NCBI GenBank assembly: GCA_035546615.1
Contig: DASZWM010000006.1
Span: forward strand, 128,001-192,000
Source: Minisyncoccota bacterium
GTDB taxonomy: Bacteria; Patescibacteriota; Minisyncoccia; Phycocordibacterales; SBAW01
Reading direction: 5' to 3'
DNA length: 64,000 bases
The first letter of the stretch is position 1; every line of letters starts with the position of its first letter. Below the pieces are notes generated by a model. That model searched no databases, was not told the DNA's origin, and saw nothing but the letters and a program-made list of their open reading frames with translations. A program made the position numbers and the translations under genes. Positions 7,899 through 48,843 of this stretch are shown here, piece after piece.

Positions 7899-7907
7899 TG
7901 GTATTCT
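7899..7907 (+). promoter_or_regulatory. Extended -10 promoter (TGGTATTCT) 8 nt upstream of the mpg ATG; near-leaderless transcript predicted
   Basis: TGn plus TAnnnT hexamer; no SD before the ATG at 7916. Confidence 0.5.
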
Positions 7908-7915
7908 AGAGCCGT

Positions 7916-8446
7916 ATGAAGAAAGTCCTCGGTCCCGAATTTTTCAACCGCCCGACGCTCACGGTCGCCCGCGAGCTTGTGGGCAAATATCTGGTGCGCC
8001 GCTCCAACGGCAAAACCATAGCTCTGAGTATTACCGAAACGGAGGCGTATGACGGCTTTAAGGACCTTGCGTCCCACGCCCGCCGCGGCAAGACCCCGCG
8101 AAATCTCCCGATGTACGCTCCGGCCGGCACTATATATGTGTACTTCACCTACGGCATGCACTGGATGCTCAATCTGGTATGCGGGGAATCTGAATATCCC
8201 GCCGCCGTGCTTATTCGCGGCGCCGGAGAGGTAGTAGGACCCGCCCGGCTTACAAAAGCGCTGGGGATAGATAAAAGCCTCAACGCGATGATGCTGGGCA
8301 AAAAATCGGGCTTGTGGGTCGAAGACAGGGGAGAAACGGTACGGCCGAAAGATATCGAGCGCACGCCGCGCATCGGCATTGCATACGCGGGCGAGTACGC
8401 GTGCAAGCCCTGGAGGTTCGTGCTCAAAGGGGGCCAGCGAATGTAA
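7916..8446 (+). CDS. mpg: DNA-3-methyladenine glycosylase (Mpg/AAG family)
   Basis: LGPEFFNRPTLTVARELVGKYLV...TETEAYDGFKDLASHARRGKTPRN..MYAPAGTIYVY..YGMHWMLNLV matches the MPG family signature. Confidence 0.88.
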   Translation: MKKVLGPEFFNRPTLTVARELVGKYLVRRSNGKTIALSITETEAYDGFKDLASHARRGKTPRNLPMYAPAGTIYVYFTYGMHWMLNLVCGESEYPAAVLIRGAGEVVGPARLTKALGIDKSLNAMMLGKKSGLWVEDRGETVRPKDIERTPRIGIAYAGEYACKPWRFVLKGGQRM

Positions 8447-8481
8447 AAGCGCGGGCCGGGAATTCCCAGGCCCGCGCTGCC
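8447..8481. terminator. Bidirectional hairpin terminator between the convergent mpg and the 8495-8761 gene (GCGCGGGCC-GGGAATTCCC-GGCCCGCGC)
   Basis: 9-bp GC stem with a palindromic loop. Confidence 0.6.
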
Positions 8482-8494
8482 GGCGGAAACTACC

Positions 8495-8761
8495 TCATTG
8501 CGGTCGAGGCATATTCGGAATGGGGCATCCGTTACCGTTCCACACGCTCATCCAGGCTTTCTGTTCCTGGGCCGTGGCGGGAACCGCTGCCGTATCCGGG
8601 ATGCAGAAGGGTCGCACTGTTGCCGGCTCCCAGGTATCAACCACGGGATACACGAAGCTTCGCGAATAAAGCTCGGGGTCTTCCCTGGAGACAGAGGTCG
8701 ATGCGGCGAGAACAGGCGTGCAGACAGAAAGAAGAACTGCAGTGCTCAAGAACCTCCTCAT
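8495..8761 (-). CDS. Hypothetical small secreted protein (~88 aa), start at MRRFLSTAVLLSVCTPVLAAS
   Basis: Signal-peptide-like N-terminus; TAAGGAG SD 8 nt upstream of this ATG. The ORF-track version (to 8866) adds an unlikely N-terminal extension. Confidence 0.5.
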   Translation of the reverse strand: MRRFLSTAVLLSVCTPVLAASTSVSREDPELYSRSFVYPVVDTWEPATVRPFCIPDTAAVPATAQEQKAWMSVWNGNGCPIPNMPRPQ

Positions 8762-8864
8762 GGTACGGCTCCTTAGGCCACCGTGGCCTGCCGCTAGTAT
8801 GCTTCGCGCGCAATGAGCGCGCAATGTGCATATTCGCGATGCTATACTGGAGCTATAAGGATCC

Positions 8865-10544: not shown

Positions 10545-10567
10545 GAGGATAGAATATACTTCCCGGC

Positions 10568-11203
10568 ATGAAGATAACGAAATTCGGCCACTGCTGCCTT
10601 CTGCTCGACATCGACGGCGTGAAGATACTCACTGACCCGGGCTCTTTTACGACAGAGCAGAACGCCGTAACGGGCCTCAACGCGGTGCTCATTACCCACA
10701 GCCATGGCGATCACTATCACGCCGAATCCGTGCCCCAGCTTGTGAAAAACAACCCCGAGGCAGTATTCGTAACTAACGGCGAGGTGGGGAAGCTGCTTGA
10801 AACGCAAAGCGTTCCGTACACGAAAGTCGGCGACGGCGGATCGACGGGCATCAAAGGAGTGAAAATAGAAGGCTTCGGCGCCAAGCATGCGGAAATATAC
10901 GGCGAGATGGGCCAGGTCGAGAACACGGGCTACTTCGTGGGAGAGAAATTCTACTTCCCGGGCGACAACTTTTATGATCCGGGCAAGCCGATAGACGTCC
11001 TCGCGCTTCCGGTCGCCGCCCCGTGGCTCAGGATAAAAGACGTCATTGATTTCGCGAAAGCGGTGAAAGCCCGCACGGCCTTCGGCGTGCACGACGGCAT
11101 GATAGTGCCGTCCTTCCGCAGCTTTGCAGGGAACGCGCTCAAGATGTTCGTACCCGAGACCGAGTATGTGGCTATGCAAGATGGGGAAATAAGAGAGTTC
11201 TAA
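10568..11203 (+). CDS. Metallo-beta-lactamase (MBL)-fold metal-dependent hydrolase
   Basis: HSHGDH (HxHxDH) motif, ~210 aa; TATACT hexamer 7 nt upstream of the ATG (leaderless-type). Confidence 0.8.
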
Positions 11204-11243
11204 TTTGTGTACCGCAAAATAGCCAAAAGCGTATAGTAGTGGC

Positions 11244-12383
11244 ATGGAGCCGCTGGCTAACAAGATACGCCCCAAAACGCTTGATGAGTTTGTGGGCCAG
11301 GAGCACCTGGTCGGCCCCGGCAAGCCCCTGCGCGTGGCTATAGAGGAAGGGCACCTATTCTCTTTTATATTGTGGGGCCCGCCGGGCTCAGGCAAGACGA
11401 CGCTGGCGCGCATCTACGCCAATGCTCTGGACGCCGAGTTCTACGAGCTTTCGGCGGTCGACTCCGGCAAGGAGGACATCAAGCGCATCGTAGGCGAGAA
11501 GGGGGCGCTGGATTTCTCCACGAAGCCTAAAATCCTATTCATCGACGAGATACACCGCTTTAATAAGGCCCAGCAGGATTTTCTCCTGCCGTACGTGGAG
11601 CGCGGCGAGCTCACTCTCATTGGGGCAACGACCGAGAACCCCAGCTTCGAGGTTATCTCGGCGCTCCTGTCGCGCTGCCGCGTGTTCGTGCTCAATGAGC
11701 ACGGCGAAAGCGAGATGGATTCCATTATCAAGCGCACGAAGCTGAAGGTCCCGAAGGATGCGCGCGACTGGCTCGTGCAGATGGCCGGCGGCGACGCGCG
11801 GCAGGCCATTACGACGCTTGAGAATACGCAGAAGCTCTATGGCAAGATAACGGTGGATACCCTCAAGGAAAGCATACAGTCCGCGCACCTGCGCTACGAC
11901 AAGAAGGGCGAGGAGCACTACAACACTATCTCGGCGTTCATAAAGAGCATGCGCGCCAGCCAGCCCGACGCGGCGCTGTACTACCTGGCGCGCATGGTCG
12001 AAGCGGGTGAGGATCCGCTCTTTATTGCCCGGCGGATGGTGATATTCGCCAGCGAAGACGTAGGGCTGGCGCAGCCGACCGCGCTTGTAGTAGCCAACGC
12101 GGTGTTCGAAGCATGCGACAAGATAGGCTACCCCGAGGCGGCAATAAACCTGGCGCACGGCGTGGCGTATCTGGCGAGCTGTAAAAAGGACCGCAGCGCG
12201 TACGACGGATATTTCGACGCGCTGGACGACGTACGAAAATTCGGCAACCTCCCTATACCGCTCAAGATCCGCAACGCGCCGACGAAGCTGATGAAAGACC
12301 TCAAGTACGGCAAAGGCTATGAAAGATACGACAAGGAATCCTACCTGCCCGAAAAGCTGAAGGGCAAGAAATATCTGAAATAG
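11244..12383 (+). CDS. rarA: Replication-associated recombination protein A (AAA+ ATPase RarA/MgsA)
   Basis: Walker [12 protein letters not shown]; LADKIRP-like N-terminus ([19 protein letters not shown]); MgsA C-terminal domain. Confidence 0.9.
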
Positions 12384-12505: not shown

Positions 12506-12916
12506 TCACGGATCGGGCGGCCCCTCTCCGGCCGCAGCAGCCACCCCATGCCGCGGCATCGCCTGCAGATGCGCACGCGCTCTCCTTTCTTTCAGGTGAT
12601 GGCGGTGCTCTTCGTGGCCGACCCGGGCGGCGAGGATCGCTTCCGCCGCTTTGTGCCACACCAGGGTCCAGAGCTCGGGAGTGATACTCTCCTTGCGGTT
12701 CCATTGGCGCGGGACCAGCAGGAGCACGGGATTATCGGCCGACGGCTCGTCCAGGGAAAATTCCCAGGCATGACCCTCGACCAGCACCCGCGCCCTGTTC
12801 CTGGTCGCGAGATAGAGACGAATGATGCCGGGGAATCGCTCCTCGGCATCAAAGAGTTGCTCGTCCGTGAGGATGAACTCGCGGAGCTTTACTTGGGACG
12901 GCGAGGTGCTGCTCAT
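12506..12916 (-). CDS. Hypothetical protein (136 aa), second gene of a two-gene operon
   Basis: Protein-like composition on the minus strand (MSSTSPSQVKLREFILTDEQLFDAEERFPGIIRLYLATRNR...HEEHRHH), whereas the overlapping plus-strand ORF 12467-12922 is R/P-rich shadow. GGAGG 9 nt before the ATG. Confidence 0.5.
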   Translation of the reverse strand: MSSTSPSQVKLREFILTDEQLFDAEERFPGIIRLYLATRNRARVLVEGHAWEFSLDEPSADNPVLLLVPRQWNRKESITPELWTLVWHKAAEAILAARVGHEEHRHHLKERRARAHLQAMPRHGVAAAAGEGPPDP

Positions 12917-12918
12917 CG

Positions 12919-13134
12919 CTAGTCGCCTCCGATTTTCCGCGTGCGCTCGAGATCATTGCGGGTGTATCCCCGCTTGCGATACCGGGCGTACTGGCGGTTT
13001 TGCTCGCGCTCCTGCGACACCTGCCGGGGATCAGGAAGTTCGCGGGGCGACTGCGGCTGCTGCCGCGGCGCGCCGTGAGGCGAGTAATCAAGCGGCGTCG
13101 AGCCGCTCGCCCATTTGCTTGTGTGATGGTCCAC
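12919..13134 (-). CDS. Hypothetical small basic/Gln-rich protein (71 aa, GTG start), first gene of the two-gene operon
   Basis: GCGGAGG SD 6 nt before the GTG. Ends 2 nt before the downstream gene's ATG. Low-complexity R/Q/P-rich sequence. Confidence 0.4.
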   Translation of the reverse strand: MDHHTSKWASGSTPLDYSPHGAPRQQPQSPRELPDPRQVSQEREQNRQYARYRKRGYTRNDLERTRKIGGD

Positions 13135-13186
13135 TGCGGGCCTCCGCGTTGACTGTGAAATGAACGGATGAAATTGCGACCGGTAC

Positions 13187-13263: not shown

Positions 13264-13716
13264 TTATGAGAAGAGGCTTTCAACGATGCCTTTGACGACG
13301 GTGCCGTCGGCTTTGCCCTTGAGGTCCTTCATGAGGGCGCCCATAACCTTGTTGGCGCCGGATTTGTCGGTAACGCCCATTTCAGCGGCCTTGGCTTTGG
13401 CGGCGGCGGTTATTTCGTCATTGGACATCTGTGCGGGGAGGAAGCCTTCGAGTATCGCGAGCTCGGCCTTCTCGCCCTCAGCGAGTTCCGGGCGGCCGCC
13501 CTTCTCGAACTGCTCAATGGAATCTTTGCGCTGCTTGGAGGCGCGGATGATAACGCTCATAAGCTCGTCGTCGGTGAGCATGGCGTCCGGGCCTTTGCCC
13601 CTGGTTACCGCCTCGTTGGTCGCGGCGGCGGAAAGCCCGCGCAAAACCGAAAGGCGCACGGCGTCCTTGGCGCGCATCGCGTCCTTAATGGCCTCCTTGA
13701 GTTCTGGGTGTGTCAT
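13264..13716 (-). CDS. yqeY: GatB/YqeY domain protein (start at MTHPELKEAIKDAM)
   Basis: MTHPELKEAIKDAMRAKDAVRLSVLRGLSAA...EGFLPAQMSNDEITAAAKAKAAEMG matches the YqeY family. The first 18 codons in the track ORF are unlikely. Confidence 0.8.
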   Translation of the reverse strand: MTHPELKEAIKDAMRAKDAVRLSVLRGLSAAATNEAVTRGKGPDAMLTDDELMSVIIRASKQRKDSIEQFEKGGRPELAEGEKAELAILEGFLPAQMSNDEITAAAKAKAAEMGVTDKSGANKVMGALMKDLKGKADGTVVKGIVESLFS

Positions 13717-13753
13717 ATGATTACAAATTTGTGTACCTGAACTATAGCAAAAA

Positions 13754-13762
13754 TGGTACCAT
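13754..13762 (+). promoter_or_regulatory. Extended -10 (TGGTACCAT) 6 nt upstream of the rmuC ATG; leaderless-type promoter
   Basis: TGG plus TACCAT (TAnnnT), then ACCGCC, then ATG 13769; part of the palindrome ATGGTACCAT. Confidence 0.45.
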
Positions 13763-13768
13763 ACCGCC

Positions 13769-14872
13769 ATGGACCCGCTCGTGTTACTTCTTATCGTCCT
13801 GGTGCTTGGAAACGCCGCGACTATCTATCTGCTGTGGAAGCGCACGCAGACTACTGACGAGGGCGGCCCTGCCGACACCCAAGGCTTTATGCTTCTGCAA
13901 AACCAGCTGTCGGAGCTATCGCGCGCGATGGAGAACAAGCTGGGCGAGGGCACGAACCGCATGTTCGAGGGCATGAAGACGCAGTCCGAGCAGTCGGAGC
14001 GCCTTATCGCCACCATCAGCCGCCAGGTAACCGAACAGCTGGTCGAAGTCACTAAGGGCGTTACCGCGACGCAGGAGTCCACCAAGCAGGTGTTTACCAT
14101 CGCAGAGCAGCTCCAGAATCTGGAAAAGGTGCTCAAGCATCAGAAGCAGCGCGGCAACCTGGGCGAAGCGAGTCTCGAGCTCATTCTGGCCAACATCTTG
14201 CCGCCGGGGGCGTATCAGATGCAGTACGAGTTCCCGGGCGGGGAAACGGTGGACGCCGTCATACAGACCAAAGAGGGCGTTATTCCGATAGACGCCAAGT
14301 TCAGCCTCGACAACTACCAGCGGCTCATCAATGCGATAGACGATGTGCAGAAGGCGGAGCTTGAAAAGCAGTTCAAGAACGACCTCAAGCTGCGCATCGA
14401 CGAAACGAGCAAATACGTGCGCCCCAAGGACGGCACCCTGCCGTTCGCCTTCATGTACATTCCGGCCGAGGCCATCTACTACGACCTGCTTATAAACGAA
14501 GTCGGGTCGGTCAAGGTGAACACGCGCAATCTCATCGATTACGCGTACAACGAGAAGAAAGTCATCATCGTTTCGCCGACGACCTTCGCCGCGTACCTGC
14601 AGTCGGTCCTGTACGGCTTCAAGGCGTTCAAGATAGAGGAACAGGCAAAGGACATCGCCAAGAACGTGGAGGCGCTCGGCCGCCATATAAACGCGTACCA
14701 GGACTTCTATAAGAAGCTCGGCGCGTCGCTCTCGACCACGGTGAACCACTTCAACGCGGGCAGCAAAGAATTGGGCAAGATTGAAAAGGACGTCCTGCGC
14801 ATCGACGCCTCGTCGGAACTGGCGATAGACATCCCCATGCTCGACAAGCCAATCCTGGAAGGGAAGGACTAA
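13769..14872 (+). CDS. rmuC: DNA recombination protein RmuC
   Basis: N-terminal TM helix, long coiled-coil, conserved RmuC C-terminal region (GNLGEASLELIL...IPIDAKFSL...FAFMYIP). Confidence 0.88.
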   Translation: MDPLVLLLIVLVLGNAATIYLLWKRTQTTDEGGPADTQGFMLLQNQLSELSRAMENKLGEGTNRMFEGMKTQSEQSERLIATISRQVTEQLVEVTKGVTATQESTKQVFTIAEQLQNLEKVLKHQKQRGNLGEASLELILANILPPGAYQMQYEFPGGETVDAVIQTKEGVIPIDAKFSLDNYQRLINAIDDVQKAELEKQFKNDLKLRIDETSKYVRPKDGTLPFAFMYIPAEAIYYDLLINEVGSVKVNTRNLIDYAYNEKKVIIVSPTTFAAYLQSVLYGFKAFKIEEQAKDIAKNVEALGRHINAYQDFYKKLGASLSTTVNHFNAGSKELGKIEKDVLRIDASSELAIDIPMLDKPILEGKD

Positions 14873-15170: not shown

Positions 15171-15198
15171 TTGCAGTTTTTATATTTTGTGGTATGGT
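15171..15198 (+). promoter_or_regulatory. Sigma-70-type promoter TTGCAG-N16-TATGGT with TGG extension (TGTGGTATGGT) for the MaoC-like gene; ~58-nt leader ending in a GGAGGAG SD
   Basis: -35 at 15171-15176, -10 at 15193-15198. Confidence 0.5.
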
Positions 15199-15256
15199 AT
15201 TCCCGGATGCGGCGCATTCCGCGCGTATCGTTTCTCGATAATAGTGGAGGAGAATT

Positions 15257-15847
15257 ATGGTCATCGAAGCGCCGGGAATGCCGACAAAGGCTGGGACAGG
15301 ATCGTGTCCGTGGCAGCCGGGGTATGAGTTTTCCTTTGATCTGGGCGCATTCAGCCGAGTCGAGGTTGCGGAGTATGTGCGGCGGGTCAGAGATCCCAAT
15401 GCCATCCATATCGATGCCGAAGCGGCTCGCAAATTCTGCGTTGCCCGCGGCATCGCGGTCCGAATGCCTAAGGAATGGATCGTTCCCGGCATGGCGCCTC
15501 TGGATCGCCTGCCCGGCCTCTTCGTCGACAAGTTCGGTCAGAACACGCACCTGGTCGAGATCAAACGTACGCTCTTTGTGCAGCCCTGCTTTACGGGCGA
15601 AATGCTCCGCGCCGACTGCGCTATCGCGGATGTCCGCAGCGTCGGTCAGGCGGACTGGCATATTTCGTGCCGGATACGCATTTCGGTTGCGGATGCCGAA
15701 GAAGATATCGTGACGGTCACAGGCTCGGCCGCCTTCAGAACGCCGAAGACGGGCTTACGCGCCGATGACCCGGCACTCGATAGAACCGGCATTCCGGCGG
15801 CCGAGAAGCTGCTGGAAGACGACCATGGCGGCGTCTCGAAGCACTGA
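15257..15847 (+). CDS. MaoC-like (R)-specific enoyl-CoA hydratase / hot-dog fold protein
   Basis: DPNAIHIDAEAARKFCVARGIAV (MaoC dehydratase motif); SD GGAGGAG before the ATG. Confidence 0.7.
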   Translation: MVIEAPGMPTKAGTGSCPWQPGYEFSFDLGAFSRVEVAEYVRRVRDPNAIHIDAEAARKFCVARGIAVRMPKEWIVPGMAPLDRLPGLFVDKFGQNTHLVEIKRTLFVQPCFTGEMLRADCAIADVRSVGQADWHISCRIRISVADAEEDIVTVTGSAAFRTPKTGLRADDPALDRTGIPAAEKLLEDDHGGVSKH

Positions 15848-16311: not shown

Positions 16312-16476
16312 TCAGCGGGCGGACATGCCGTACTTCCAGCCGAAAAACACGCCCGCCGCGATCAGGATCACGGCCAAAAGCGGGGCGGAATATAAAAGGC
16401 GGCCCCACGTTCTTCTGTACTCCTCGGCCTGGCCTTTATCCCAAGCCGCGAGGTCGTCTTCGTCTACGGCACGCAT
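16312..16476 (-). CDS. Hypothetical small membrane protein (54 aa from MRAVDEDDLAAWDK...), downstream of recR
   Basis: GGGAGG SD 6 nt upstream of this ATG; C-terminal TM helix LLAVILIAAGVFFGW. Confidence 0.45.
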   Translation of the reverse strand: MRAVDEDDLAAWDKGQAEEYRRTWGRLLYSAPLLAVILIAAGVFFGWKYGMSAR

Positions 16477-16532
16477 GCGTACCTCCCTTCGTTTCTCCTG
16501 CGGGCAACTATACAGCATTTTCGGGAACTCTT

Positions 16533-17150
16533 CTAGCTGCGCGAGCTAAGCGCGCTGGCGATAGTGTCCGGGTCGGCGTATTCTATCTCGCTGCCGGTCG
16601 AGAGGCCGCGGCCGAGGCTTGAGAGCCTGAAGTTGAACCCTTGGCTCATGGGGCGAAGCTTCTCGCTCAGAAGCTGGCGGGTATGGTCGCCCTCGGTCGT
16701 GGCGGAGAGGCCCAAAATAAGTTCGGTCAAAACCAGGTCGCTGCCGTCCCGCTCTACCCGTGCTACCAGCTCGCGCATGCGGATGTGGCTTTGGGGCTCC
16801 TCGGCCGCCAGCGGCACGGTGCCGCCCAGCACGAAGTACACGCCCTTGAAGCCGCTTCTCTCAACGTTGTCGATATCCGCGTCCTTTTCGACGACGAACA
16901 GTATCCCTTTCTCGCGCCTGGAGTTGCCGCAGATATTGCAGAGGACGGTGTCGTCGGCGCTTTTGACAGACCAGCGGAAACACTCCGAGCACTGAAAGGT
17001 GTTGGCGCCCAGCTTGCCCAAGTCCTGCGCGAGCGCCGCGCGAAAGGCGCCCGGCTGAACCAGGAGGAACTGCACGAACCGCCGCGCCTGCCGGGGCCCT
17101 ATGCCGGGAAAGCGCTCGAATGCCTGGGTTAGCCGGTCTATCGGGTTCAC
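16533..17150 (-). CDS. recR: Recombination protein RecR (GTG start)
   Basis: LTQAFERFPGIGPRQARRFVQFLL (HhH), Cys4 zinc finger CSECFRW...CNICG, Toprim region. Confidence 0.92.
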   Translation of the reverse strand: MNPIDRLTQAFERFPGIGPRQARRFVQFLLVQPGAFRAALAQDLGKLGANTFQCSECFRWSVKSADDTVLCNICGNSRREKGILFVVEKDADIDNVERSGFKGVYFVLGGTVPLAAEEPQSHIRMRELVARVERDGSDLVLTELILGLSATTEGDHTRQLLSEKLRPMSQGFNFRLSSLGRGLSTGSEIEYADPDTIASALSSRS

Positions 17151-17165
17151 CCTTCTATTTTACAG

Positions 17166-18578
17166 CTAAAAGTCGTGTTTGGCTTCCTCGAAAACGCCGA
17201 AGTCGGTCTTTGAAAGCGATTCGAAGTTGGCGTGCTTGTCGTTGAACATGAGCTCCACCTTGCCCACGGGGCCGTTGCGGTGTTTTTCTATCAGAATCTC
17301 AGCGATGCCGGTCGGCTCGGCGCCGTCCCCGCGCTGCTGCTTGTCTTCGCGGTGGATGAACATCACCACGTCGGCATCCTGCTCGATGGAGCCGGAGTCG
17401 CGCAGGTCCGAGAGTCTGGGCTTGCCGCCGCGCTGCTCCACCGCGCGGGAAAGCTGCGAGAGCGCAAGCACCGGCACGTCGAGCTCGCGGGCGAGTATTT
17501 TGAGCGAGCGGGAAATTTCCGTTATCTGCTGGACCATTGAGTCCGACGCGCGCGTAGTGGTGGGCATCATGAGCTGGAGATAGTCCACGACCAGGAGCCC
17601 GAGGCCGTTTTCGCGCTTGAGGCGCCGCGCCACCGCGCGCATCTTGAGGATATTGTTGCCCGCCTGGTCGTCTATGAAAATCGGGGCGGAGGAGAGGCGG
17701 TCGTACGCGTCACGGATGCGCTCAAAATCCTCGCTGTTCTCCTTTATGCGGCCGACGCGCCAGTCCCACGCGCTTACGCGCGCCTCCGAGGCTATCATGC
17801 GGTCCACGAGCTGCTGGGCGGACATCTCAAGCGAGAAGATGCCCACGGTCGTGCCGTGCTTTACCGCGGCCTGGCGGGCGATATCGAGCGCCAGCGCGGT
17901 CTTTCCGACTGACGGCCGGGCGGCGAGGATGATGAGGTCGCTTTTCTGAAGGCCGGCGAGCATGTTGTCGAGGTCAGGGAAGCCGGTGCGCACGCCCCTG
18001 ATCTCGCCCTGGTGCTCCTGCAGGTGCGCGTAGTGCTCCCATGCCTTGCCGAGGCTCTCGCGCAGTGACGTGAACTTGGTGAGGCTCGGCATATCGGTCA
18101 CCTCGTAGATGCGCTTCTCGGCCTTGTCGAGCGTCTCCTCAAGCTCGCCGCTTTCGTCGAAGCCAAGCTCCGCCACGAACTCGCCGGCGTCTATCAGGTT
18201 GCGCAGCATGTACTTCTTCTGCACCTGGTTGGCGTAGTGGCGGGCGTTGGATGCCGCGGGCACTTCGCTCACGAGCTCCGCGAGGTACGCGACGCCGCCG
18301 ACGCCTTCAAGCTGCTTGCTGTCGGCCAGGCACGCGCGCACGCTCTCGATGTCGATGGGCTCGTTCTTGCCCCAGAGCCCGACCATCGCGCGAAAGATGA
18401 TGCGGTGCTTTTCGCTGTAAAACGCGTCCGCCGAAATGATGTCCACCGACTCGGCCATGCCTTCCGGCCGCACCATAACGGCGCCCAGGAACGCGCGCTC
18501 GGTCTCTATCGTCTGCGGCGGCATGCGCAGCGGGTCTATCTTTTTCGGTTTCGGCGCCTGGGGAGGAAACTTTGCCAT
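17166..18578 (-). CDS. dnaB: Replicative DNA helicase DnaB (start at MAKFPPQAPKPKK; the track's 73-codon extension to 18797 is probably non-coding)
   Basis: GFPDLDNMLAGLQKSDLIILAARPSVGKTALALDIA (Walker A), DnaB N-domain ERAFLGAVMVRPE; RecA-like C-terminus. Confidence 0.9.
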   Translation of the reverse strand: MAKFPPQAPKPKKIDPLRMPPQTIETERAFLGAVMVRPEGMAESVDIISADAFYSEKHRIIFRAMVGLWGKNEPIDIESVRACLADSKQLEGVGGVAYLAELVSEVPAASNARHYANQVQKKYMLRNLIDAGEFVAELGFDESGELEETLDKAEKRIYEVTDMPSLTKFTSLRESLGKAWEHYAHLQEHQGEIRGVRTGFPDLDNMLAGLQKSDLIILAARPSVGKTALALDIARQAAVKHGTTVGIFSLEMSAQQLVDRMIASEARVSAWDWRVGRIKENSEDFERIRDAYDRLSSAPIFIDDQAGNNILKMRAVARRLKRENGLGLLVVDYLQLMMPTTTRASDSMVQQITEISRSLKILARELDVPVLALSQLSRAVEQRGGKPRLSDLRDSGSIEQDADVVMFIHREDKQQRGDGAEPTGIAEILIEKHRNGPVGKVELMFNDKHANFESLSKTDFGVFEEAKHDF

Positions 18579-18742
18579 GCCCTTATGGTACCCCCTTTGC
18601 CCCCGCGCAAAAAGCCGCCCGCAAGAGGCCTCACCTGTGGGTATGTGTATAGAAGGGGGATAGCCGAAAGGCCCTACCAAAACCCTGATTCGTGTGGTAT
18701 ATCTTCGGACAGAGGTGGGAGTGCTACCCGCGTGAGGAGCGC

Positions 18743-20777: not shown

Positions 20778-20806
20778 GGCTGAAACCTACCAACTGCGCG
20801 GCCCTT

Positions 20807-36402: not shown

Positions 36403-36450
36403 ACGAAGATACTACCAAAAAAAGCCTTATATAGCTTGGCAGCTACTGTA

Positions 36451-36479
36451 TTGACAAGTATAGTATTTGGGTGTATAAT
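36451..36479 (+). promoter_or_regulatory. Perfect-consensus sigma-70 promoter TTGACA-N17-TATAAT with the palindrome GGAACGGTTCC at the predicted transcription start
   Basis: -35 at 36451-36456, -10 at 36474-36479; inverted repeat at 36485-36495. Confidence 0.6.
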
Positions 36480-36513
36480 AGTTAGGAACGGTTCCGAAAC
36501 TAAACCCTCGAAT

Positions 36514-36819: not shown

Positions 36820-36882
36820 ACCAGTTCGAACCCCGACAGTTGTTTGCTCACGCAAACGCTGCCGGGGCTTTCGTTTTTATAC

Positions 36883-42355: not shown

Positions 42356-43581
42356 TACAGTGTGAACTGCCCGTTATCGTAGATAACTTTCTGCGTGCCG
42401 TCGGTCAGATGCGCGGTAACGCGGCGTTTCGTAGTTGTGATGATATCGGTATGCACCGAAGAATCGTTATAGCCCAGCGCCGCCGACTGCTTTTTAGTGA
42501 GTTTGCTCACGTCGCCGGTGTAGGTGTCTTCATAGGCGGAACCCAACGCGATGTGCGAATTGCCCTGCGGGCCGCCCATGTTCTCGTCGAACAGGGTCTC
42601 GGCCATGAACTTCGTGATGCGCGAGTGGCGGCGGTCGGTCATCGAGAACTCGCCGATGCGGTCGGCACCGGGCGTGCGTATCATTTCGTGCAGGAGCTTC
42701 TGGCCGGTCTTGGCGCGGCTCTTTACGACCCTGCCGTTTTTGAACCATAGCTCGATGCCGGTTATCTTGCTGCCGTAGCGGTAGAGCGGCTGGTTGAATC
42801 GTATCCAGCCGCTGGTCCCCCGCCAGTCGGGAGAAGTGAATATCTCAAAGCTCGGAATGTTTGCGCCGCGGCCGGAAAGCCATTTGCGGCTTTCGCCCAG
42901 CGTAATCCAAAGGTCGGCGTCTTCCCCTTCTATATGCAGGCGGTCTATTTTCGGCGAGAGGTCGTTGAGCTTCTTGTTGTACTTATGGATGTCCTTATAT
43001 ACGTCGTTCCACTTTTTTATAGGGTCCTTCTCATCAAGAAAGCATGCCTGGATTATCTCGTGCCAGTACTCTTGTATGGAAAGCCCCGCTTCTTTGGCCA
43101 TACCCTCGGTGCCATAGAGCGCGATGGACCAGGACAGCTTGCCCTGATTCTCCTTGTCGCGGCGCCAGTCCATGAACTGCTTCATGGCCTTGCCCCGGCG
43201 CATAATCTTCTTCGGATCTACGTTCTTGAGCGCCTGAGAATCCACATCGGCCAGGATAAAAAGGATATGGTCCATCTGATCTACAAGCCCTTTAAAGTAG
43301 TGCGCCGGAAAAAAGTCGAGCTGGTGGTCCTTCGCGCGCTCAAAAAAATCGGCGCTGAAGTTGTACCGGTCGTCGCCGTTTGGCTGGTAGAGCATGATGG
43401 TGTGCCCTCCCGCCTCAAGCACCGCATTGCGCACCGCGATAAAAAGCGGACGGCATGATTCCATGCCGTTTATGCAAACCACGTCGCCTTTCTTGATTCC
43501 CCTGCCGTGGCCCAGAGCGAAATTCACCAGCACGTCCGCGTAGCGCTTTAGGACCACCGGACTAGGCGTATACCCCTTCAT
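42355..43581 (-). CDS. Aminopeptidase, M29 family (AmpS/PepS-like)
   Basis: M29 thermophilic metalloprotease pattern and size (408 aa). TAAAAT hexamer 8 nt upstream of the ATG. Confidence 0.8.
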   Translation of the reverse strand: MKGYTPSPVVLKRYADVLVNFALGHGRGIKKGDVVCINGMESCRPLFIAVRNAVLEAGGHTIMLYQPNGDDRYNFSADFFERAKDHQLDFFPAHYFKGLVDQMDHILFILADVDSQALKNVDPKKIMRRGKAMKQFMDWRRDKENQGKLSWSIALYGTEGMAKEAGLSIQEYWHEIIQACFLDEKDPIKKWNDVYKDIHKYNKKLNDLSPKIDRLHIEGEDADLWITLGESRKWLSGRGANIPSFEIFTSPDWRGTSGWIRFNQPLYRYGSKITGIELWFKNGRVVKSRAKTGQKLLHEMIRTPGADRIGEFSMTDRRHSRITKFMAETLFDENMGGPQGNSHIALGSAYEDTYTGDVSKLTKKQSAALGYNDSSVHTDIITTTKRRVTAHLTDGTQKVIYDNGQFTL

Positions 43582-43613
43582 ATGGGCCCATTTTAGCGCA
43601 AATACAGGCTATT

Positions 43614-44228
43614 TTAAAGGCTCTTGATGTCCTTAACTATCTCCGGAAACTGCTCTTGATTCTGGTGTTTCCTGTCTTCGAATATTCGAACGGTAGCGTT
43701 GGGAAGCAAGTTACGATACTTCTCAAGCTCGTCGATATTTACGATAGGATCATCTTTACTGTGGTATAGGAATATCTTTCCGGCTTGTTTTTCGAATTTC
43801 TCAAGAGAGCTGGGCAGGACGAATTCGCTTACGACCCTCTGAGTCTCTCCTTTTCCGCGCATCTCAAATGGAGCTGCGACTAGAAATACTCCATTTATCT
43901 TTTTTGGGAACTCCTCTTCGGACAAGTATCTCGCCAAGAATATGCCTCCAAGCGAATGGCCTACCAATATAACTCCATGTTCTATGAAAGGAATGAATCT
44001 TTCGAACCATATCTTCCACTCCGGATATCGGGCATTTTCCTTATTGGGCATGCCGGGATATATAACCTCGTATTCATCGCCAAGGCTCTGAGGAAGCCTG
44101 CTTTTCCAGTCCCCACCGCCTTTGAACTTATCGATATAAATCGGCTTAGTCTTGAGATTGTTAAGAAAATCCTCGTAAGTTGGAAAAGCAGAACTGCCAC
44201 CATGTATGACTACAACTTGTTTTTTCAT
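43614..44228 (-). CDS. Alpha/beta hydrolase, RBBP9/YdeN-like serine hydrolase (DUF1234)
   Basis: VVVIHGGSS...ILVGHSLGG (GxSxG) ... HSKDDPIV pattern; 204 aa. Confidence 0.7.
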   Translation of the reverse strand: MKKQVVVIHGGSSAFPTYEDFLNNLKTKPIYIDKFKGGGDWKSRLPQSLGDEYEVIYPGMPNKENARYPEWKIWFERFIPFIEHGVILVGHSLGGIFLARYLSEEEFPKKINGVFLVAAPFEMRGKGETQRVVSEFVLPSSLEKFEKQAGKIFLYHSKDDPIVNIDELEKYRNLLPNATVRIFEDRKHQNQEQFPEIVKDIKSL

Positions 44229-45490
44229 TATAGTATCTTATTAGCTGCGTCTAATCCTGTTGCTAAGGCTGCTTCGACAGTGGCTGCCTCTCTACCTTGA
44301 TATAACGCTTCGCCTGCGAAAAATATCTTGTTATCTATTGGCTCCAAAAGTTCCGTTTTTGCTGCCGCGGTAGACGGCTTTGCGTAACTATAAGCGCCTT
44401 TTGCATAGGGGTCAGCAGACCAATTTATCACGCGAAAGTGCTTAAGCTCGCTTTGCAGCATTTCTTTCGAAACTTTCAAGATGGTTGCAAGCGTATCAAG
44501 AGAGCGACTTACCACTATTTCGTCGCTTAACCCTTCGAATTCCTTAACCTTAGGGCCCGCAAGCCAGCCGGTAAGCATTGGAATCTCTTCCGGGTACTGC
44601 GTCCACCATGCCCCGAACTCCTCGTTAGTAAGCAGCAATATCATCTTGCTCAGATCATGTTCATTCGCCTGTGCCCACCAGCGAGATTTGAACTTCAAGA
44701 GCACTTTTATTACGCCGCCAAATCCGATGTTTTGTGCTGCCTGGATCTTTTCCGGCTGCTCCGGCGTAAAGGAAATATTTGGCAAAATCGAAGTCGGCAC
44801 GGTTACAAGGACTTTCTGGGCCTCAAATATTTTTCCATCAGAGCACGTTATTTTTATAGTGTCGGTCGATGTATCTATTCCCTGTACTACAGTATGCAAC
44901 TGTATCTCTACTCCAAGTCTTTTGCACTCATTTTGTAAAAACTTCACAAGCGCTCCATACCCCTCCTTCAATTTTGCCTGCTCTCCCATGCCTTCGCTCA
45001 TCCACTCGTCGCGCAGCATGTACATGCTTACTTCCGCCGGGTCGGCTGCGTCGTACCCTTCAGCCATCCGCGTTACCGCATTGCGTAGACCTTCGTATTT
45101 TTCTTCCAAAAAATGCGTATCCAGGAATTTGGCAAGCGGCATATCTTCCTCAAGGACTTTTAACTTCTCCTGCAGTGCGTCCATATCGGGAACGATAAAG
45201 GGAGCCTGCGAAAGTTCGCCGTTGCGGGCATTCCAAATTTCTCCATCGCGCACTAATACCGTTAGCCCAGCGTCTTGTGCGAGAGCCCTGGTAACAGGAG
45301 TAGCTCCGTGTATAAACTCTGCACCGGCTTCTGCAGGAAAGCCGAATTCATCGGCAGGTAAAGTGTAAATGCGCCCTCCGACGCGATCGCGCGCTTCCAG
45401 AATAGTCACTTTCTTTCCGGCCTTCGCGAGCTCTCGCGCAGCCATAAGTCCCGCAGCTCCGGCGCCTACAATAATTACCCCAGTATCCAT
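44228..45490 (-). CDS. FAD-dependent amine oxidase family oxidoreductase
   Basis: Dinucleotide-binding IIVGAGAAGLMAARELAKAGKKVTILEARDRVGGR; amine-oxidase fold length. Confidence 0.8.
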   Translation of the reverse strand: MDTGVIIVGAGAAGLMAARELAKAGKKVTILEARDRVGGRIYTLPADEFGFPAEAGAEFIHGATPVTRALAQDAGLTVLVRDGEIWNARNGELSQAPFIVPDMDALQEKLKVLEEDMPLAKFLDTHFLEEKYEGLRNAVTRMAEGYDAADPAEVSMYMLRDEWMSEGMGEQAKLKEGYGALVKFLQNECKRLGVEIQLHTVVQGIDTSTDTIKITCSDGKIFEAQKVLVTVPTSILPNISFTPEQPEKIQAAQNIGFGGVIKVLLKFKSRWWAQANEHDLSKMILLLTNEEFGAWWTQYPEEIPMLTGWLAGPKVKEFEGLSDEIVVSRSLDTLATILKVSKEMLQSELKHFRVINWSADPYAKGAYSYAKPSTAAAKTELLEPIDNKIFFAGEALYQGREAATVEAALATGLDAANKIL

Positions 45491-45521
45491 GTTCTAGATA
45501 AGTTTGAAAAAACTTAGGACT

Positions 45522-45896
45522 CTAGATTTTTTTAACAGTAAAGTAAGAACTAGCGACAGTCTTCTCACCAATGAGAATTTCTACATCGTAGCGACCTTCT
45601 TTCTCAACGGGGAACCCTTGAAGTCTATGTATAAATTGATGACGAAAGTTTTTTGGTTCAAAAGTTGTTGAATCCCTTCCAATTTCTTTTCCTTCACAGG
45701 AGATCCTAAATGATTCCATATATTGCTTATTTTGTTGGTCAGCCGGTATTTCAATATTGACAACAATGCACATACTGCTATGTATTGCAGGAAAGCCAGG
45801 TACATTTATAGAATCAAACACACCTCTGATATTTAATTTTTTGTCGTTCTCAGAAATTTCGGCCGAATCACACAAAAGAATGAAATTTGGTTTCAT
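45522..45896 (-). CDS. Hypothetical protein (124 aa), AT-rich
   Basis: ORF on the same strand and with the same composition as its island neighbours; no family recognised. Confidence 0.45.
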   Translation of the reverse strand: MKPNFILLCDSAEISENDKKLNIRGVFDSINVPGFPAIHSSMCIVVNIEIPADQQNKQYMESFRISCEGKEIGRDSTTFEPKNFRHQFIHRLQGFPVEKEGRYDVEILIGEKTVASSYFTVKKI

Positions 45897-45935
45897 AAAA
45901 ACTATTTTAGCATGTAAAAAAATATTTGTCTAATT

Positions 45936-47381
45936 TCATTTTATTTCCTTTTCTGTGGAACTATTCTCAGTCTCAAAAGAATTAGAAGAAGAAGGCAAGG
46001 TAAAGTCTTTCGTAGTTTGCGTTACCCCTAACTCATTGTAATCAATCTCTGGATTTGAGTTAATACGTTGATCAATCCGGTTCATATCGCGTGGGAAGGC
46101 GGACGCTTCTTTAACGTTCGCGAGGTTAAGCATTTTCATCGTGAGGCGCTCGAGCCCGGTTGAGCAGCCGCCGTGCGGCGGCATACCGTACTTGAAGGCC
46201 TGGAGATAGAAGGCGAACTTCGCTGTGTCCATACCGCGCAATTTCATCTTCTCGATCAATTCATCGTAGTTATGGATGCGCTGCGAGCCGGAGTTGATCT
46301 CGAGCCCGCGGAAGAGGAGGTCGAAGCTACGGCTAAACTCCGGGTCCTCCGGGTCGGGGTAGGTGTAGAACGCGCGCTTCTTGGTCGGGAAGTGCGTAAT
46401 AAAGATAAAGTCGGAGCTGAGCTTCTCCTTGGCGTATTGGCAGATCTGGCGCTCGTGCTCGGGCTCAAGGTCGAGCTCTCCTACTGCCTTGCCGCCGAAC
46501 TCTTTCTCGATTATTTCTTGTGCTTCGCGCAAGGTGAAGGTTGGGAATGGTCCCTGCGGCAGCAGCGCCGGCTCCACCTTGAAGCGCTTCAGCGCGTCGA
46601 TATGCTTCTCAGCAACAGTCGTCGATATAGTTCGTATCACCTTCTCGAGCATCGCCATCACGTCCTTGTGCGAATCGACGAAGCCCATTTCGAACTCAAG
46701 CTGCGTCAGCTCGGCCAAATGCCGCGTCGTTGCGCTTTTCTCGGCGCGGAAGGTCTTGGCTACGGTCATCGAGCGCTCGAACGGCCCGACCATTATCTGC
46801 TTATAGAGCTGGCCGCTGGTCGCCAAGTACGCCTGCTTGCCGTAGTAGTCTTCTATCTTGAATACCGCCGCGCCTCCTTCGGCGTCGCCGCCCACCAGGA
46901 CCGGCGCTTGGAATTCGGTAAAGCCTTCATCGCGCAATGCGTTCCTGAACGCGTTGACGATGGTTGCCTGCACGGTAAAGATGTCGCGCGTGCGCTCGAT
47001 GCGCAGCGTGAGCGGCAGATTGTCGAAATGCGTGTCGATATTGAGCTCCGCGTCCATCGCAAACGGCAGCGAGTGCGCTTCCGAAAGCACTTTTATGCCC
47101 GTAATTTCAAGCTCGATGTTGCCGTTGGGGACGTCGCGGCGCATCTTCTCCGGCCGCTCGTTCACCTTGCCCTCGATGCGCACGACCCACTCTTGCTTTA
47201 GCTTCTGCGCCACCTCAAGCACCTCCGGCTTGCCGAATACGACGCCCTGTACCTTGCCGGAGCGGTCGCGGAAGTCGAAAAAGGCCATCTTGCCCTGGTT
47301 GCGCGCGACATCCACCCAGCCGCCGATGGATACGGTTTCTCCGATATGCTTGCTCAAATCTCCAATTAAAGTCCGTTCCAT
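45936..47381 (-). CDS. aspS: Aspartyl-tRNA synthetase, archaeal/eukaryal type (class IIb; possibly non-discriminating), with a ~45-aa low-complexity C-terminal tail. Start likely MERTLIGDL (the track uses 47450)
   Basis: OB-fold N-terminus, motif 2 FRAE, motif 3 GGCSTGLERL, FPRD near the canonical end, then an AT-rich-encoded tail ...NSNPEIDYNELGVTQTTKDF.... AspRS versus AsnRS cannot be fully resolved by eye. Confidence 0.8.
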   Translation of the reverse strand: MERTLIGDLSKHIGETVSIGGWVDVARNQGKMAFFDFRDRSGKVQGVVFGKPEVLEVAQKLKQEWVVRIEGKVNERPEKMRRDVPNGNIELEITGIKVLSEAHSLPFAMDAELNIDTHFDNLPLTLRIERTRDIFTVQATIVNAFRNALRDEGFTEFQAPVLVGGDAEGGAAVFKIEDYYGKQAYLATSGQLYKQIMVGPFERSMTVAKTFRAEKSATTRHLAELTQLEFEMGFVDSHKDVMAMLEKVIRTISTTVAEKHIDALKRFKVEPALLPQGPFPTFTLREAQEIIEKEFGGKAVGELDLEPEHERQICQYAKEKLSSDFIFITHFPTKKRAFYTYPDPEDPEFSRSFDLLFRGLEINSGSQRIHNYDELIEKMKLRGMDTAKFAFYLQAFKYGMPPHGGCSTGLERLTMKMLNLANVKEASAFPRDMNRIDQRINSNPEIDYNELGVTQTTKDFTLPSSSNSFETENSSTEKEIK

Positions 47382-47418
47382 ATGTATTTTGTGTTTTTGC
47401 AAAAAGCTAAAATGATTT

Positions 47419-48360
47419 TTATAGAGCCACGCCGACTTTTTGCCTGACATCCGCCATCTTAGCCGATGCTATCGCGCGGGCCTTTTCGGCTCCTTCGCGC
47501 AGGATCTGCTTAACCTGCTCGTCGGTTATATTTGCGCGCCTTTCCCGCATAGGGTCAATCGCAGCCTCTATGTCTTCCACAAGCGCGTCTTTCAGAACTT
47601 TGTAGCTGCCCTTATTCGCCGCATACAAGCTTTCAAGCTCGCTTTCGCTCTTAAAGAGCTTATGGATCGCGTACACATGCTCGGGGCGCTCGCCAGAGGA
47701 GTCGGTCACGATGCTCATGACCGCTTTCGATATCTCGTCTTTGGTGCCGAAGAGTGGAATGGTGTTCTTATAGCTCTTGCTCATTTTCTGACCGTCGGTG
47801 CCGGGCACAGTGGCAACCTCTTCGGAGATCTTTTCTTGCGGTTCTTTGAACGTTTGTCCGTATGCATTATTGAACTTGCTCGCCGCCTCGCGAGCGTATT
47901 CAACATGCTGGCGCTGGTCGGCCCCTACCGGCACGATATCGGTATCATACAGAAGGATATCGGCAGCCATAAGCATTGGGTACGTAAAAAGGCCCGCGTT
48001 CGCCTCGAGTCCTTTCGCTACCTTGTCCTTATATGAGTGCGCCTGCATCAAAAATGGCACGGTAACCAAACAATCAAATATCCACGCCAGTTCTGTGTGC
48101 TCCTGCACATCTGACTGCTTGAATATGATAGCCTTGCTCGGATCTACTCCTGCAGCGACATAGTTCTTTACCACATCAATAATGTTCTGCTTCAGCACCG
48201 CCGGGTCTTTAAGGCTCGTGAGCGCGTGGTAATCAACGACCATGAGGAAGCTTTCGTACTGCTCGTATTCGCTCACAAAGGGCTTGAGCGCGCCGAAATA
48301 GTTGCCGATATGCAAGGTGCCGGAAGGCTGAAGGCCCGTCAAAAGCCGCTTTTTTGCCAT
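47419..48360 (-). CDS. trpS: Tryptophanyl-tRNA synthetase
   Basis: HIGH-like TLHIGNYFGA, KMSKS (QKMSKS); 313 aa. Confidence 0.93.
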   Translation of the reverse strand: MAKKRLLTGLQPSGTLHIGNYFGALKPFVSEYEQYESFLMVVDYHALTSLKDPAVLKQNIIDVVKNYVAAGVDPSKAIIFKQSDVQEHTELAWIFDCLVTVPFLMQAHSYKDKVAKGLEANAGLFTYPMLMAADILLYDTDIVPVGADQRQHVEYAREAASKFNNAYGQTFKEPQEKISEEVATVPGTDGQKMSKSYKNTIPLFGTKDEISKAVMSIVTDSSGERPEHVYAIHKLFKSESELESLYAANKGSYKVLKDALVEDIEAAIDPMRERRANITDEQVKQILREGAEKARAIASAKMADVRQKVGVAL

Positions 48361-48411
48361 ATGGCACTTAGTGTATCAGAAAATCCTTCCCTACCAAGGC
48401 TATTTCTATAC

Positions 48412-48440
48412 TTGACTTTCTACTTAAATAGGAGTATAAT
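48412..48440 (+). promoter_or_regulatory. Consensus promoter TTGACT-N17-TATAAT, 4 nt upstream of the ATG at 48445 (leaderless-type)
   Basis: -35 at 48412-48417, -10 at 48435-48440. Confidence 0.55.
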
Positions 48441-48444
48441 TAAC

Positions 48445-48843
48445 ATGAAACTGAACATTGGAGTACTAAAGATGCCAAAGTCAGAGAAGCCCAACGGTCT
48501 TACCGTCCTCCAGCGTTTTGTGACGGAGGAGATTTTCAAGGTCAGCGCAGAGATCGCCAAGAGATCACAGCAGACGGGAGTGAAGTCCCACACAGCTGCC
48601 TTTACTGCCGTCTTTGGGAAGCGTCTTGCGGTGCTTGATGCAATCTTGCTGGTGGTGAACCACCACCAGCACCGCCACAAAGGCTTATCGGAGAAGACTC
48701 GCCTCAATCTGATTCAGGCGGCAGAGACTTCTTTGTGGTCCTCCTCTCTTTCTGCAGACGGCGAGGAGGTGTCGCGCTATGTACCTCCCATGATGGAAGA
48801 AGACAAGATGCGCGAGTTGTTCCGTCTGATCCGTGCTGCCTAA
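48445..48843 (+). CDS. Hypothetical protein (132 aa; MKLNIGVLKMPKSEKPNG...HHQHRHKG...)
   Basis: The track ORF 48226-48843 is trimmed to the first ATG after the promoter; no family recognised. Confidence 0.5.
   Translation: MKLNIGVLKMPKSEKPNGLTVLQRFVTEEIFKVSAEIAKRSQQTGVKSHTAAFTAVFGKRLAVLDAILLVVNHHQHRHKGLSEKTRLNLIQAAETSLWSSSLSADGEEVSRYVPPMMEEDKMRELFRLIRAA

Follow-up and report, generated by a model that had tools for sequence, protein, structure and literature searches.

We analyzed a 64,000-nucleotide (nt) stretch of contig DASZWM010000006.1 (assembly GCA_035546615.1, positions 128,001 to 192,000), hereafter the window, for the signals that precede its start codons. The subject is a TAnnnT hexamer, usually with TG in front of it, which lies 6–8 nt upstream of the ATG at many genes without a Shine-Dalgarno (SD) sequence and marks candidate leaderless starts. 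The window has a G+C content of ~59% and encodes 2 tRNAs and roughly 70 proteins. An Rfam scan of it returned the 2 tRNAs only and no 16S rRNA gene. Pfam agrees with the names that a preliminary description of this DNA had given to mpg, rarA, rmuC, dnaB, cysS, corA, ctpA, rplI, gltX, pepS, DUF378, the ABC ATPase and the MBL-fold hydrolase, and also annotates a cell-wall/scpAB operon, grpE-dnaK-dnaJ and an infA-rpsM-rpsK-rpsD-rpoA-rplQ-rplM-rpsI cluster.

In a protein search with the window's gltX product, the best 80 relatives all come from loci of Patescibacteria/Parcubacteria metagenome-assembled genomes (MAGs; 80/80). The top match has 71% identity, and the closest named relatives, at 59–63%, are Ca. 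Adlerbacteria. A look-up of the exact gltX protein in public assemblies returned no identical copy. According to these matches, the source of the window is a Parcubacteria genome (candidate phyla radiation, CPR) close to Ca. Adlerbacteria. The same 80 loci, about 1.3 Mb with 1209 open reading frames (ORFs) of at least 90 amino acids (aa), form our clade sample; a search for a 16S rRNA gene in them found none.

Start signals along the window

We call a gene leaderless-type if its start codon is ATG, the hexamer ends 6–8 nt upstream (gap 6–8) and the start lies more than 12 nt from the upstream same-strand gene. This holds for 18 of the 70 genes with curated starts, 10 at gap 6, 5 at gap 7 and 3 at gap 8. 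Genes with the hexamer at gap 9 (trpS, dnaJ) come in addition to the 18, and recR (gap 6, GTG) stands apart. The individual sites are as follows, with coordinates, strand, gene, motif, gap and start codon.

7899–7918 (+), mpg: TGGTATTCT, 8 nt, ATG 7916, as in the preliminary description
10555–10570 (+), MBL-fold hydrolase: TATACT, 7 nt, ATG 10568
11232–11246 (+), rarA/mgsA: TATAGT, 6 nt, ATG 11244
13754–13771 (+), rmuC: TGGTACCAT, 6 nt, ATG 13769
17148–17162 (−), recR, doubtful: TAAAAT, 6 nt, GTG 17150
18576–18590 (−), dnaB: TACCAT, 6 nt, ATG 18578, 73 codons within the longest ORF
20775–20792 (−), cysS: TGGTAGGTT, 6 nt, ATG 20777
21716–21733 (−), corA: TGGTATAAT, 6 nt, ATG 21718
21762–21779 (+), ctpA (S41 peptidase): TGATATACT, 6 nt, ATG 21777
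23339–23393 (+), rplI: hairpin 23339–23369 and T run, TATAGT 23379–23384, 6 nt, ATG 23391
28100–28117 (+), 171-aa signal-peptide protein: TGCTAGAAT, 6 nt, ATG 28115
30320–30335 (−), SDH-type protease: TATTAT, 7 nt, ATG 30322; TTTACA 17 nt upstream
33397–33436 (−), ABC ATPase: hairpin 33436–33422, then TGCTATACT, 8 nt, ATG 33399
35061–35078 (−), M23 peptidase: TGGTAAAAT, 6 nt, ATG 35063
36400–36417 (−), gltX: TGGTAGTAT, 6 nt, ATG 36402
43579–43595 (−), pepS (M29): TAAAAT, 8 nt, ATG 43581
45894–45912 (−), DUF6941: TGCTAAAAT, 7 nt, ATG 45896; TAGACA-17-TAAAAT by consensus scan
48358–48378 (−), trpS: TGATACACT, 9 nt, ATG 48360; putative leader 0–3 nt
50115–50132 (−), dnaJ: TAGAAT, 9 nt, ATG 50117
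51978–51996 (−), ABC exporter: TGCTACTGT, 7 nt, ATG 51980
54452–54469 (−), grpE: TTGACC-16-TATAAT, 9 nt, ATG 54454; TAATGT at 7 nt; putative leader 0–3 nt
61147–61161 (−), 319-aa protein: TATACT, 6 nt, ATG 61149

The preliminary description had given 15 motif and spacing examples, ending at 48445. In all of them the hexamer and its spacing are present as described, and two are weak: DUF378 (33675, −) does have TATACA, but its last base is A and not T, and the gene at 48445 does have TATAAT, but at 4 nt from the ATG, too short for a start at the A. The latter gene also carries AGGAG 10 nt upstream. The pattern extends beyond that end coordinate, to the genes starting at 51980, 54454 and 61149 (all −). 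The recR site is doubtful because its start is not ATG, the base at −1 is a purine and the gene begins only 15 nt after dnaB.

Several sites are arranged tightly. The divergent genes rmuC (+) and yqeY (−) are separated by 52 nt (region 13716–13771) and have the palindrome ATGGTACCAT in common, which reads TGGTACCAT on either strand. corA (−) and ctpA (+) have back-to-back promoters, both leaderless-type, in a 58-nt intergenic region (21716–21779). The TGGTAAAAT of the M23 peptidase overlaps the gltX stop codon, so that the promoter lies within the 3' end of the upstream gene; it is kept at the same place in the closest relative (locus L001), as TGTTAGAGT-6-ATG. In the consensus scan, the rplI promoter reads TTGTCG-17-TATAGT.

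Six of the examples need an ATG internal to the longest ORF (dnaB 18578, corA 21718, ctpA 21777, rplI 23391, ABC ATPase 33399, DUF378 33675), and these internal starts are compatible with the Pfam N-terminal alignments. For rplI the alignment is decisive, since Met 23391 is profile position 1 of L9_N. The DUF378 Met at 33675 adjoins profile position 1, and the DnaB N-domain begins 20 residues after Met 18578. Among the other sites, residue 2 of the MBL-fold hydrolase is profile position 1 of Lactamase_B_3, and the Pur_DNA_glyco match of mpg begins at residue 8. Orthologue N-termini fall within about 2 codons of the listed starts. The longest-ORF rule adds 73 codons to dnaB (18578–18797), 73 to corA (21718–21937), 22 to rplI (23325–23391), 21 to DUF378 (33675–33738) and 18 to yqeY (13716–13770). 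As that rule adds spurious codons, gene callers trained on SD sequences likely misplace many starts in MAGs of candidate phyla.

Spacing of the hexamer to gene starts

Under a motif-blind rule, which takes the first start codon after a stop (longest ORF) as the gene start, TAnnnT stands at gap 6 in 8 of 66 genes, compared with 0–4 at most other gaps. Of the 17 TAnnnT-N6-ATG strings on the two strands, 11 coincide with a plausible gene start, whereas for ATGs in general the figure is 152 of 1788 (odds ratio 21, p = 9.4e-9). With curated starts, the hexamer is found at gap 6 in 13 genes and at gap 6–8 in 23, while 2000 shuffles of the upstream regions gave 1.4 ± 1.2 and 4.2 ± 2.0. The 13 gap-6 genes start with ATG in 12 cases and have a pyrimidine at −1 in 10, and the favored form of the −10 in the window is TGGTAnnnT. 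As the preliminary description had stated, these genes lack an SD: GGAG, GAGG or AGGA at 3–12 nt occurs in none of the gap 6–8 genes.

The remaining genes fall into other groups. Sixteen of the 70 directly adjoin the upstream gene or overlap it, at spacings of −17 to +12, and 4 of these also have the hexamer, the M23 peptidase included. A strong GGAGG or GAGGAG at 4–9 nt precedes 9 of the 70, with a tenth case at 36526, and 24 of the 70 have neither signal, among them the ribosomal-protein cluster with its AT-rich spacers of 22–130 nt. No housekeeping gene of the window has an SD. The commonest recognizable start signal of the window's housekeeping genes is thus the leaderless-type one.

Our results with the 80 related loci are similar. 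There, 30% of the 840 TAnnnT-N6-ATG strings stand at plausible starts, compared with 5.5% of all ATGs (p = 2.6e-113), and the gap-6 peak appears in all G+C classes between 0.30 and 0.62. For gaps 5–9, the surplus above baseline corresponds to about 26% of all genes. Of the 64 loci that have 10 or more genes, 59 show more matches at gap 6–8 than at control gaps, and of the 422 families that make up the 1209 genes, 61 have a gap-6 member. An independent set of 65 metagenome contigs shows the peak as well (21% vs. 5.5%, p = 1.8e-20). SD 4-mers are flat across the 80 loci, 3–7% at every spacing, with no enrichment. The identical script, applied to 100 kb of E. coli K-12, found SD words at 39–44% of plausible starts at gaps 5–8 (baseline 5.9%), and there the hexamer did not peak at gap 6. 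SD enrichment was also seen in the 65-contig set, which indicates that the script is able to see SD sequences in such contigs.

The spacing is kept between orthologues, whose starts were projected from protein alignments. For trpS, the gap is exactly 6 in 20 of 29 species and 5–8 in 25 of 29; for corA, it is 6 in 5 of 12 and 5–8 in 10 of 12. gltX orthologues have gap 6 in 32 of 79 cases, and those without the hexamer abut the upstream gene. rplI and rpmA orthologues mostly have A-rich leaders upstream without SD. Within the related loci, gap 6 occurs in only 13% of divergent genes, for which the longest-ORF rule is least reliable. The commonest same-strand junction is a 4-nt overlap.

Promoter geometry and the candidate leaderless starts

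We aligned 174 gap-6 genes from the 80 loci at their start codon and scored positions outside the selection. Upstream, T is found at −15 in 62% and G at −14 in 55%. Inside the hexamer, T, A and A at −10, −9 and −8 reach 51%, 63% and 66%, and in the −35 region T, T and G at −35, −34 and −33 reach 48%, 48% and 32%, corresponding to a 17-nt spacer. The base at −1 is a pyrimidine in 73%, and the start codon is ATG in 159 of 174 (91%), compared with 68% of genes without the motif. This geometry is that of a sigma-70 extended −10 promoter whose predicted +1 is the A of the ATG. The suggestion in the preliminary description that TAnnnT is a −10 element therefore gains support from promoter features which it had not used. 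In the window, moreover, rplI and the ABC ATPase each have a terminator hairpin that runs right up to the −10 box, and many gltX orthologues read hairpin, TTTTTGCTATAAT, N6, ATG. Transcription coming from the upstream side would end at such a terminator. As it abuts the −10 box, it leaves no room for a leader, and a new transcript could have no more than a few bases ahead of the ATG.

The mechanism that we propose is the following. RNA polymerase with the primary sigma factor would bind TGnTAnnnT, with a weak TTG at −35, the last T of the element lying 6 nt, sometimes 7–8 nt, upstream of the start codon. We infer from this geometry that transcription would start at the A of the ATG. The mRNA would begin with 5'-AUG, having neither a 5' untranslated region nor an SD, and a ribosome with initiator tRNA would recognize the 5'-terminal AUG directly, without pairing between SD and anti-SD. 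Direct recognition of this kind is established for leaderless mRNAs in Actinobacteria and Deinococcus and for model mRNAs in E. coli, and from these we take, by analogy, how the ribosome would be recruited here. Translation of downstream cistrons would rely on termination-reinitiation where genes overlap, or on unstructured, A-rich and G-poor spacers, and a minority of small lineage-specific ORFs would use a classical promoter, a leader and GGAGG. On the evidence of sequence, it is likely that many transcription units of the window are leaderless by virtue of an extended −10 element placed against the ATG.

Several points weigh against this reading. Only 18 of the 54 non-abutting genes, about a third, are leaderless-type, next to the 24 genes with neither signal; the preliminary description was right that such starts are common, but its statement that they dominate initiation is too strong for the window. 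All 80 loci are gltX neighborhoods, so that gene families repeat in the sample. The 9–10 good GGAGG sites of the window imply that its organism probably still has an anti-SD, which we predict to be intact. The curated starts of dnaB, corA, ctpA and the ABC ATPase, though Pfam-compatible, were first chosen by the motif. Gaps 7, 8 and 9 are individually weak in the window (4/21, 4/22 and 3/11 at plausible starts), and genes with these gaps may have leaders of 1–3 nt. Finally, the window total of TAnnnT-N6-ATG is not above whole-sequence shuffles (17 vs. 12 ± 3.9). The enrichment over shuffles is thus present at gene starts but not in the raw total, and the argument depends on where the strings lie with respect to genes. 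TGGTAnnnT, with 18 occurrences against 10 ± 3 in whole-window shuffles, is a count that we judged uninformative, and the whole-window comparisons were replaced by tests conditioned on gene starts.

The raw total also lends something to the idea that the pattern is an artifact, produced by chance AT-rich hexamers, by TAA and TAG stops read as "TA", or by starts fitted to the motif. An in-frame TAG does open the hexamer in three window examples (28115, gltX and cysS), and E. coli shows an inflated gap 7 (11/37), apparently caused by the stop codons of closely preceding ribosomal-protein genes. However, TA[CT]nnT, which is never a stop codon, still peaks at gap 6 in the 80 loci (8% of genes vs. 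1–2% elsewhere), and 4368 spurious ORFs inside real genes, treated by the same rule, gave a flat profile with no gap-6 peak. These two controls exclude the stop-codon artifact. The peak is already given by the motif-blind rule, local upstream shuffles reach 1.4 where 13 are observed, and neither the flanking promoter features nor the conservation between orthologues can come from an artifact. We consider this explanation extremely improbable.

A second alternative is that TAnnnT is an A/U-rich, non-SD ribosome-binding site within longer leaders, of the Bacteroidetes type (group B of GeneMarkS-2). Hexamer-less genes of the related loci are indeed A-rich (45–49%) and G-poor (about 10%) at −8 to −3, and operon-internal genes show some gap-6 excess (10% vs. 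a background of about 3%). But TG at −15/−14 and TTG 17 nt further upstream are promoter features without a role in translation, terminators end right at the motif, and the motif is tied to ATG in 91%. It is also about twice as frequent where the same-strand upstream spacer exceeds 20 nt (gap 6 in 19–22% of genes) as at spacers of 20 nt or less (10%). As published, the group B motif is found before internal genes as well as first ones, and it cannot act as a promoter (PMC6028130). Points of resemblance to this group are the A-rich, G-poor sequence without SD upstream of hexamer-less genes and, in the window, the AT-rich spacers of 54748–58776; unlike in group B, the localized motif here would be a promoter, enriched at first genes, and only the diffuse composition is common to both. 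This alternative appears very unlikely.

The third alternative accepts the −10 elements as real and places the start a few bases before the ATG, with leaders of 1–5 nt, mainly at gap 7–9 genes. It draws on mpg, the ABC ATPase, pepS, trpS, dnaJ and grpE, where the usual discriminator of 6–7 nt puts the start 1–3 nt upstream of the A, and on trpS in particular, whose hexamer lies at gap 9 in the window compared with gap 6 in most orthologues. Against it, the window and the clade alike have their dominant, sharp peak at a gap of exactly 6 nt. A leader of 1–3 nt has no space for a ribosome-binding site, so that such mRNAs would act like leaderless ones, and the proposal is a refinement of the leaderless explanation rather than an alternative to it; as a general account we find it unlikely.

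The leaderless reading has its closest counterpart in group C of GeneMarkS-2, where a Pribnow box lies 6–8 nt from the start codon and 25–50% of operons are leaderless (PMC6028130). This group is described as mostly Actinobacteria and Deinococcus-Thermus, with candidate phyla unmentioned (PMC6028130). As in its members (Mycobacterium tuberculosis, Streptomyces, Corynebacterium, Deinococcus deserti and Thermus), the window has TAnnnT 6–8 nt before first genes without SD. The share is also comparable, at 18/54 in the window and an excess of ~26% in the related loci, both being sequence-based estimates and the latter coming from gltX neighborhoods rather than whole genomes. Unlike group C, whose remaining genes mostly have an SD, the 80 Parcubacteria loci show no enrichment of SD words, and the promoters here lean strongly on the extended −10 TG. 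Archaeal group D has a similarly high share of leaderless units, with a promoter box ~26 nt from the start codon (PMC6028130), while here the box is a bacterial −10 at 6–8 nt. With extended −10 sigma-70 promoters in general, the sites have in common TG at −15/−14, TAnnnT, a weak or absent −35, a pyrimidine at −1 and a purine at +1; the sole difference is their placement directly against the start codon. By analogy with E. coli, they would be expected to depend on sigma region 3.0.

Only 48% of the 16S rRNAs of Parcubacteria were found to have an anti-SD motif, a change whose consequence was left unclear (Tsurumaki et al., 2022, RNA 28:1041; PMC9297842). This loss, in the same clade, predicts the missing SD enrichment of the 80 loci; the window, by contrast, keeps its 9–10 ORFs led by GGAGG. 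Leaderless mRNAs are not mentioned in that paper, judging by its absence from the results of full-text searches on "leaderless". As a separate observation, the 16S 3' end on one metagenome contig (L144, 663–714), which also carries the tRNA-linked structured element described below, reads GGATTGAATCAAGG where E. coli has GGATCACCTCCTTA, and lacks CCUCC.

For Parcubacteria as a whole, we propose tentatively, and with slightly less than even confidence, that SD has been abandoned as the general means of finding starts, with leaderless first genes, re-initiation or A-rich spacers downstream, and, in lineages such as that of the window, SD kept only for small lineage-specific genes. If true, such a regime would correspond on the functional side to the reported loss of the anti-SD and would make Parcubacteria, a huge uncultured clade, a third large group with non-canonical initiation, besides Actinobacteria/Deinococcus-Thermus and Bacteroidetes. 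It would offer a concrete answer to the question left by Tsurumaki et al. (2022) of how Parcubacteria without an anti-SD find their start codons. The full-text literature searched, of incomplete coverage, held no description of a leaderless regime in Patescibacteria, CPR, Saccharibacteria or Parcubacteria, and the NCBI annotation pipeline may already model such genomes in this way, unpublished. A known bacterial leaderless habit thus seems to reach a lineage for which we found no description of it, and SD seems nearly absent across the sampled clade. A deep-branching, genome-reduced lineage would thereby bear on the question of whether leaderless initiation is an ancestral trait or one regained as the translation machinery simplified. 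For the first tractable Patescibacteria, our results suggest constructs with TGnTAnAAT, 6 nt and ATG, without a ribosome-binding site.

Small SD-led genes and other elements

The preliminary description had also noted a second class of genes, with leaders and strong GGAGG sequences, and our analysis confirmed it, with GGAGG or GAGGAG 4–9 nt upstream of the start.

6389–6403 (+), 105-aa ORF: GGAGG, 7 nt, ATG 6401; without Pfam match
12914–12930 (−), 136-aa ORF: GGAGG, 9 nt, ATG 12916
13132–13145 (−), 71-aa ORF: GGAGG, 6 nt, GTG 13134
15188–15259 (+), 196-aa ORF: promoter TGTGGTATGGT at 15188, leader ~50 nt, GGAGGAG, ATG 15257
16474–16486 (−), 54-aa ORF: GGAGG, 5 nt, ATG 16476; one transmembrane stretch
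18693–18745 (+), 166-aa ORF: promoter TGTGGTATATCT at 18693, GAGGAG, ATG 18743
23077–23091 (+), 79-aa membrane protein: GGAGGAG, ATG 23089
27155–27229 (−), 112-aa ORF: TTCACT-17-TATAAT (27229–27201), leader, GGGAGG, ATG 27157
30774–30839 (+), 83-aa ORF: TTGACA-18-TATGAT (30774–30803), leader, GGAGG, 5 nt, ATG 30837
36451–36528 (+), 97-aa ORF: TTGACA-17-TATAAT (36451–36479), leader ~40 nt, GGAGG, 5 nt, TTG 36526

These genes and their signals lie within 6389–6718, 12506–13145, 15188–15847, 16312–16486, 18693–19243, 23077–23328, 26819–27229, 30774–31088 and 36451–36870. All are small ORFs (54–196 aa) without Pfam hits, with coding-like GC1/GC2/GC3, and relatives were found neither in the 80 loci nor among the ORFs themselves. 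The MaoC label that the ORF at 15257 had been given comes from a sub-threshold Pfam match alone (E = 0.003). Several units stand alone, with near-consensus −35 and −10 boxes, a leader of 30–50 nt and a terminator. The 97-aa ORF at 36526, absent from the preliminary description, has perfect −35 and −10 boxes and a terminator near 36825–36870; an Rfam scan of the gap 36380–36900 returned no match. The TGTGGTAT promoters proposed to precede leaders were likewise found, at 15188, 18693 and 28662, upstream of leaders of ~30–50 nt. Small ORFs led by an SD beside housekeeping genes without one look like a two-tier arrangement.

In the ribosomal-protein/rpoA/infA cluster (54748–58776, −), spacers are AT-rich, 2–130 nt long and without SD. 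rpsD seemingly starts with TTG, and infA has TTGACA-17-TACTAT with a leader of ~10 nt that lacks an SD.

Two repeated motifs were noted near promoters. The 11-mer AATTTGTGTAC has three exact copies, at 11202–11212 (+), 13726–13736 (+) and 27193–27203 (−), each adjoining a promoter (rarA, rmuC/yqeY and the 112-aa ORF at 27157, respectively). With at most one mismatch, TTTGTGTAC has 11 matches in the window, compared with 5 ± 2 expected. We considered it as a part of the promoter and rejected this, as neither its distance from the −10 box nor its orientation is constant and the related loci show no enrichment of it. TTTGTGTAC/AATTTGTGTAC could be the binding site of a regulator; rarA and rmuC are both DNA-repair genes.

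The G+C content drops to near 0.50 at about 28000–32000 and 43600–48000, compared with 0.59 elsewhere in the window. These stretches carry the SDH/ClpP-like protease, small ORFs without a family, an amine oxidase, an alpha/beta hydrolase and DUF6941, and may have been acquired horizontally.

A structured element of ~125 nt occurs at three intergenic places.

7540–7880 (+), array of 3–4 degenerate units, head to tail, which follows tRNA-Glu and immediately precedes the mpg promoter
25590–25735 (−), single copy after tRNA-Pro
48895–49035 (−), single copy after dnaJ

It reads GGTGAG, hairpin, GCAAGGCCGGAA, hairpin, TGAGGCGGGGTCG, hairpin, GTGACC, around a core of GGCCGGAA, GAGGCGGGGTCG and GTGACC; the sequences of the three hairpins vary and their pairing is kept. 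The 12-mer GAGGCGGGGTCG has 3 intergenic copies and one inside rpsK (57982–57993, −). The element matches no Rfam family, and a literature search found its motif strings in no paper. At least 77 relatives are present in metagenome contigs of low to mid G+C, and among viral contigs only one has the element. Of the 23 base pairs predicted, 16 carry compensatory changes when 64 copies are aligned, of which 61 come from contigs and 3 from the window. The relatives usually lie 45–120 nt downstream of tRNA genes, of 12 identities, and in 13 cases the element is followed by a copy of the 3' end of the same tRNA, an arrangement like that of integration sites. The element may represent either a miniature integrative element or a gene for a small RNA.

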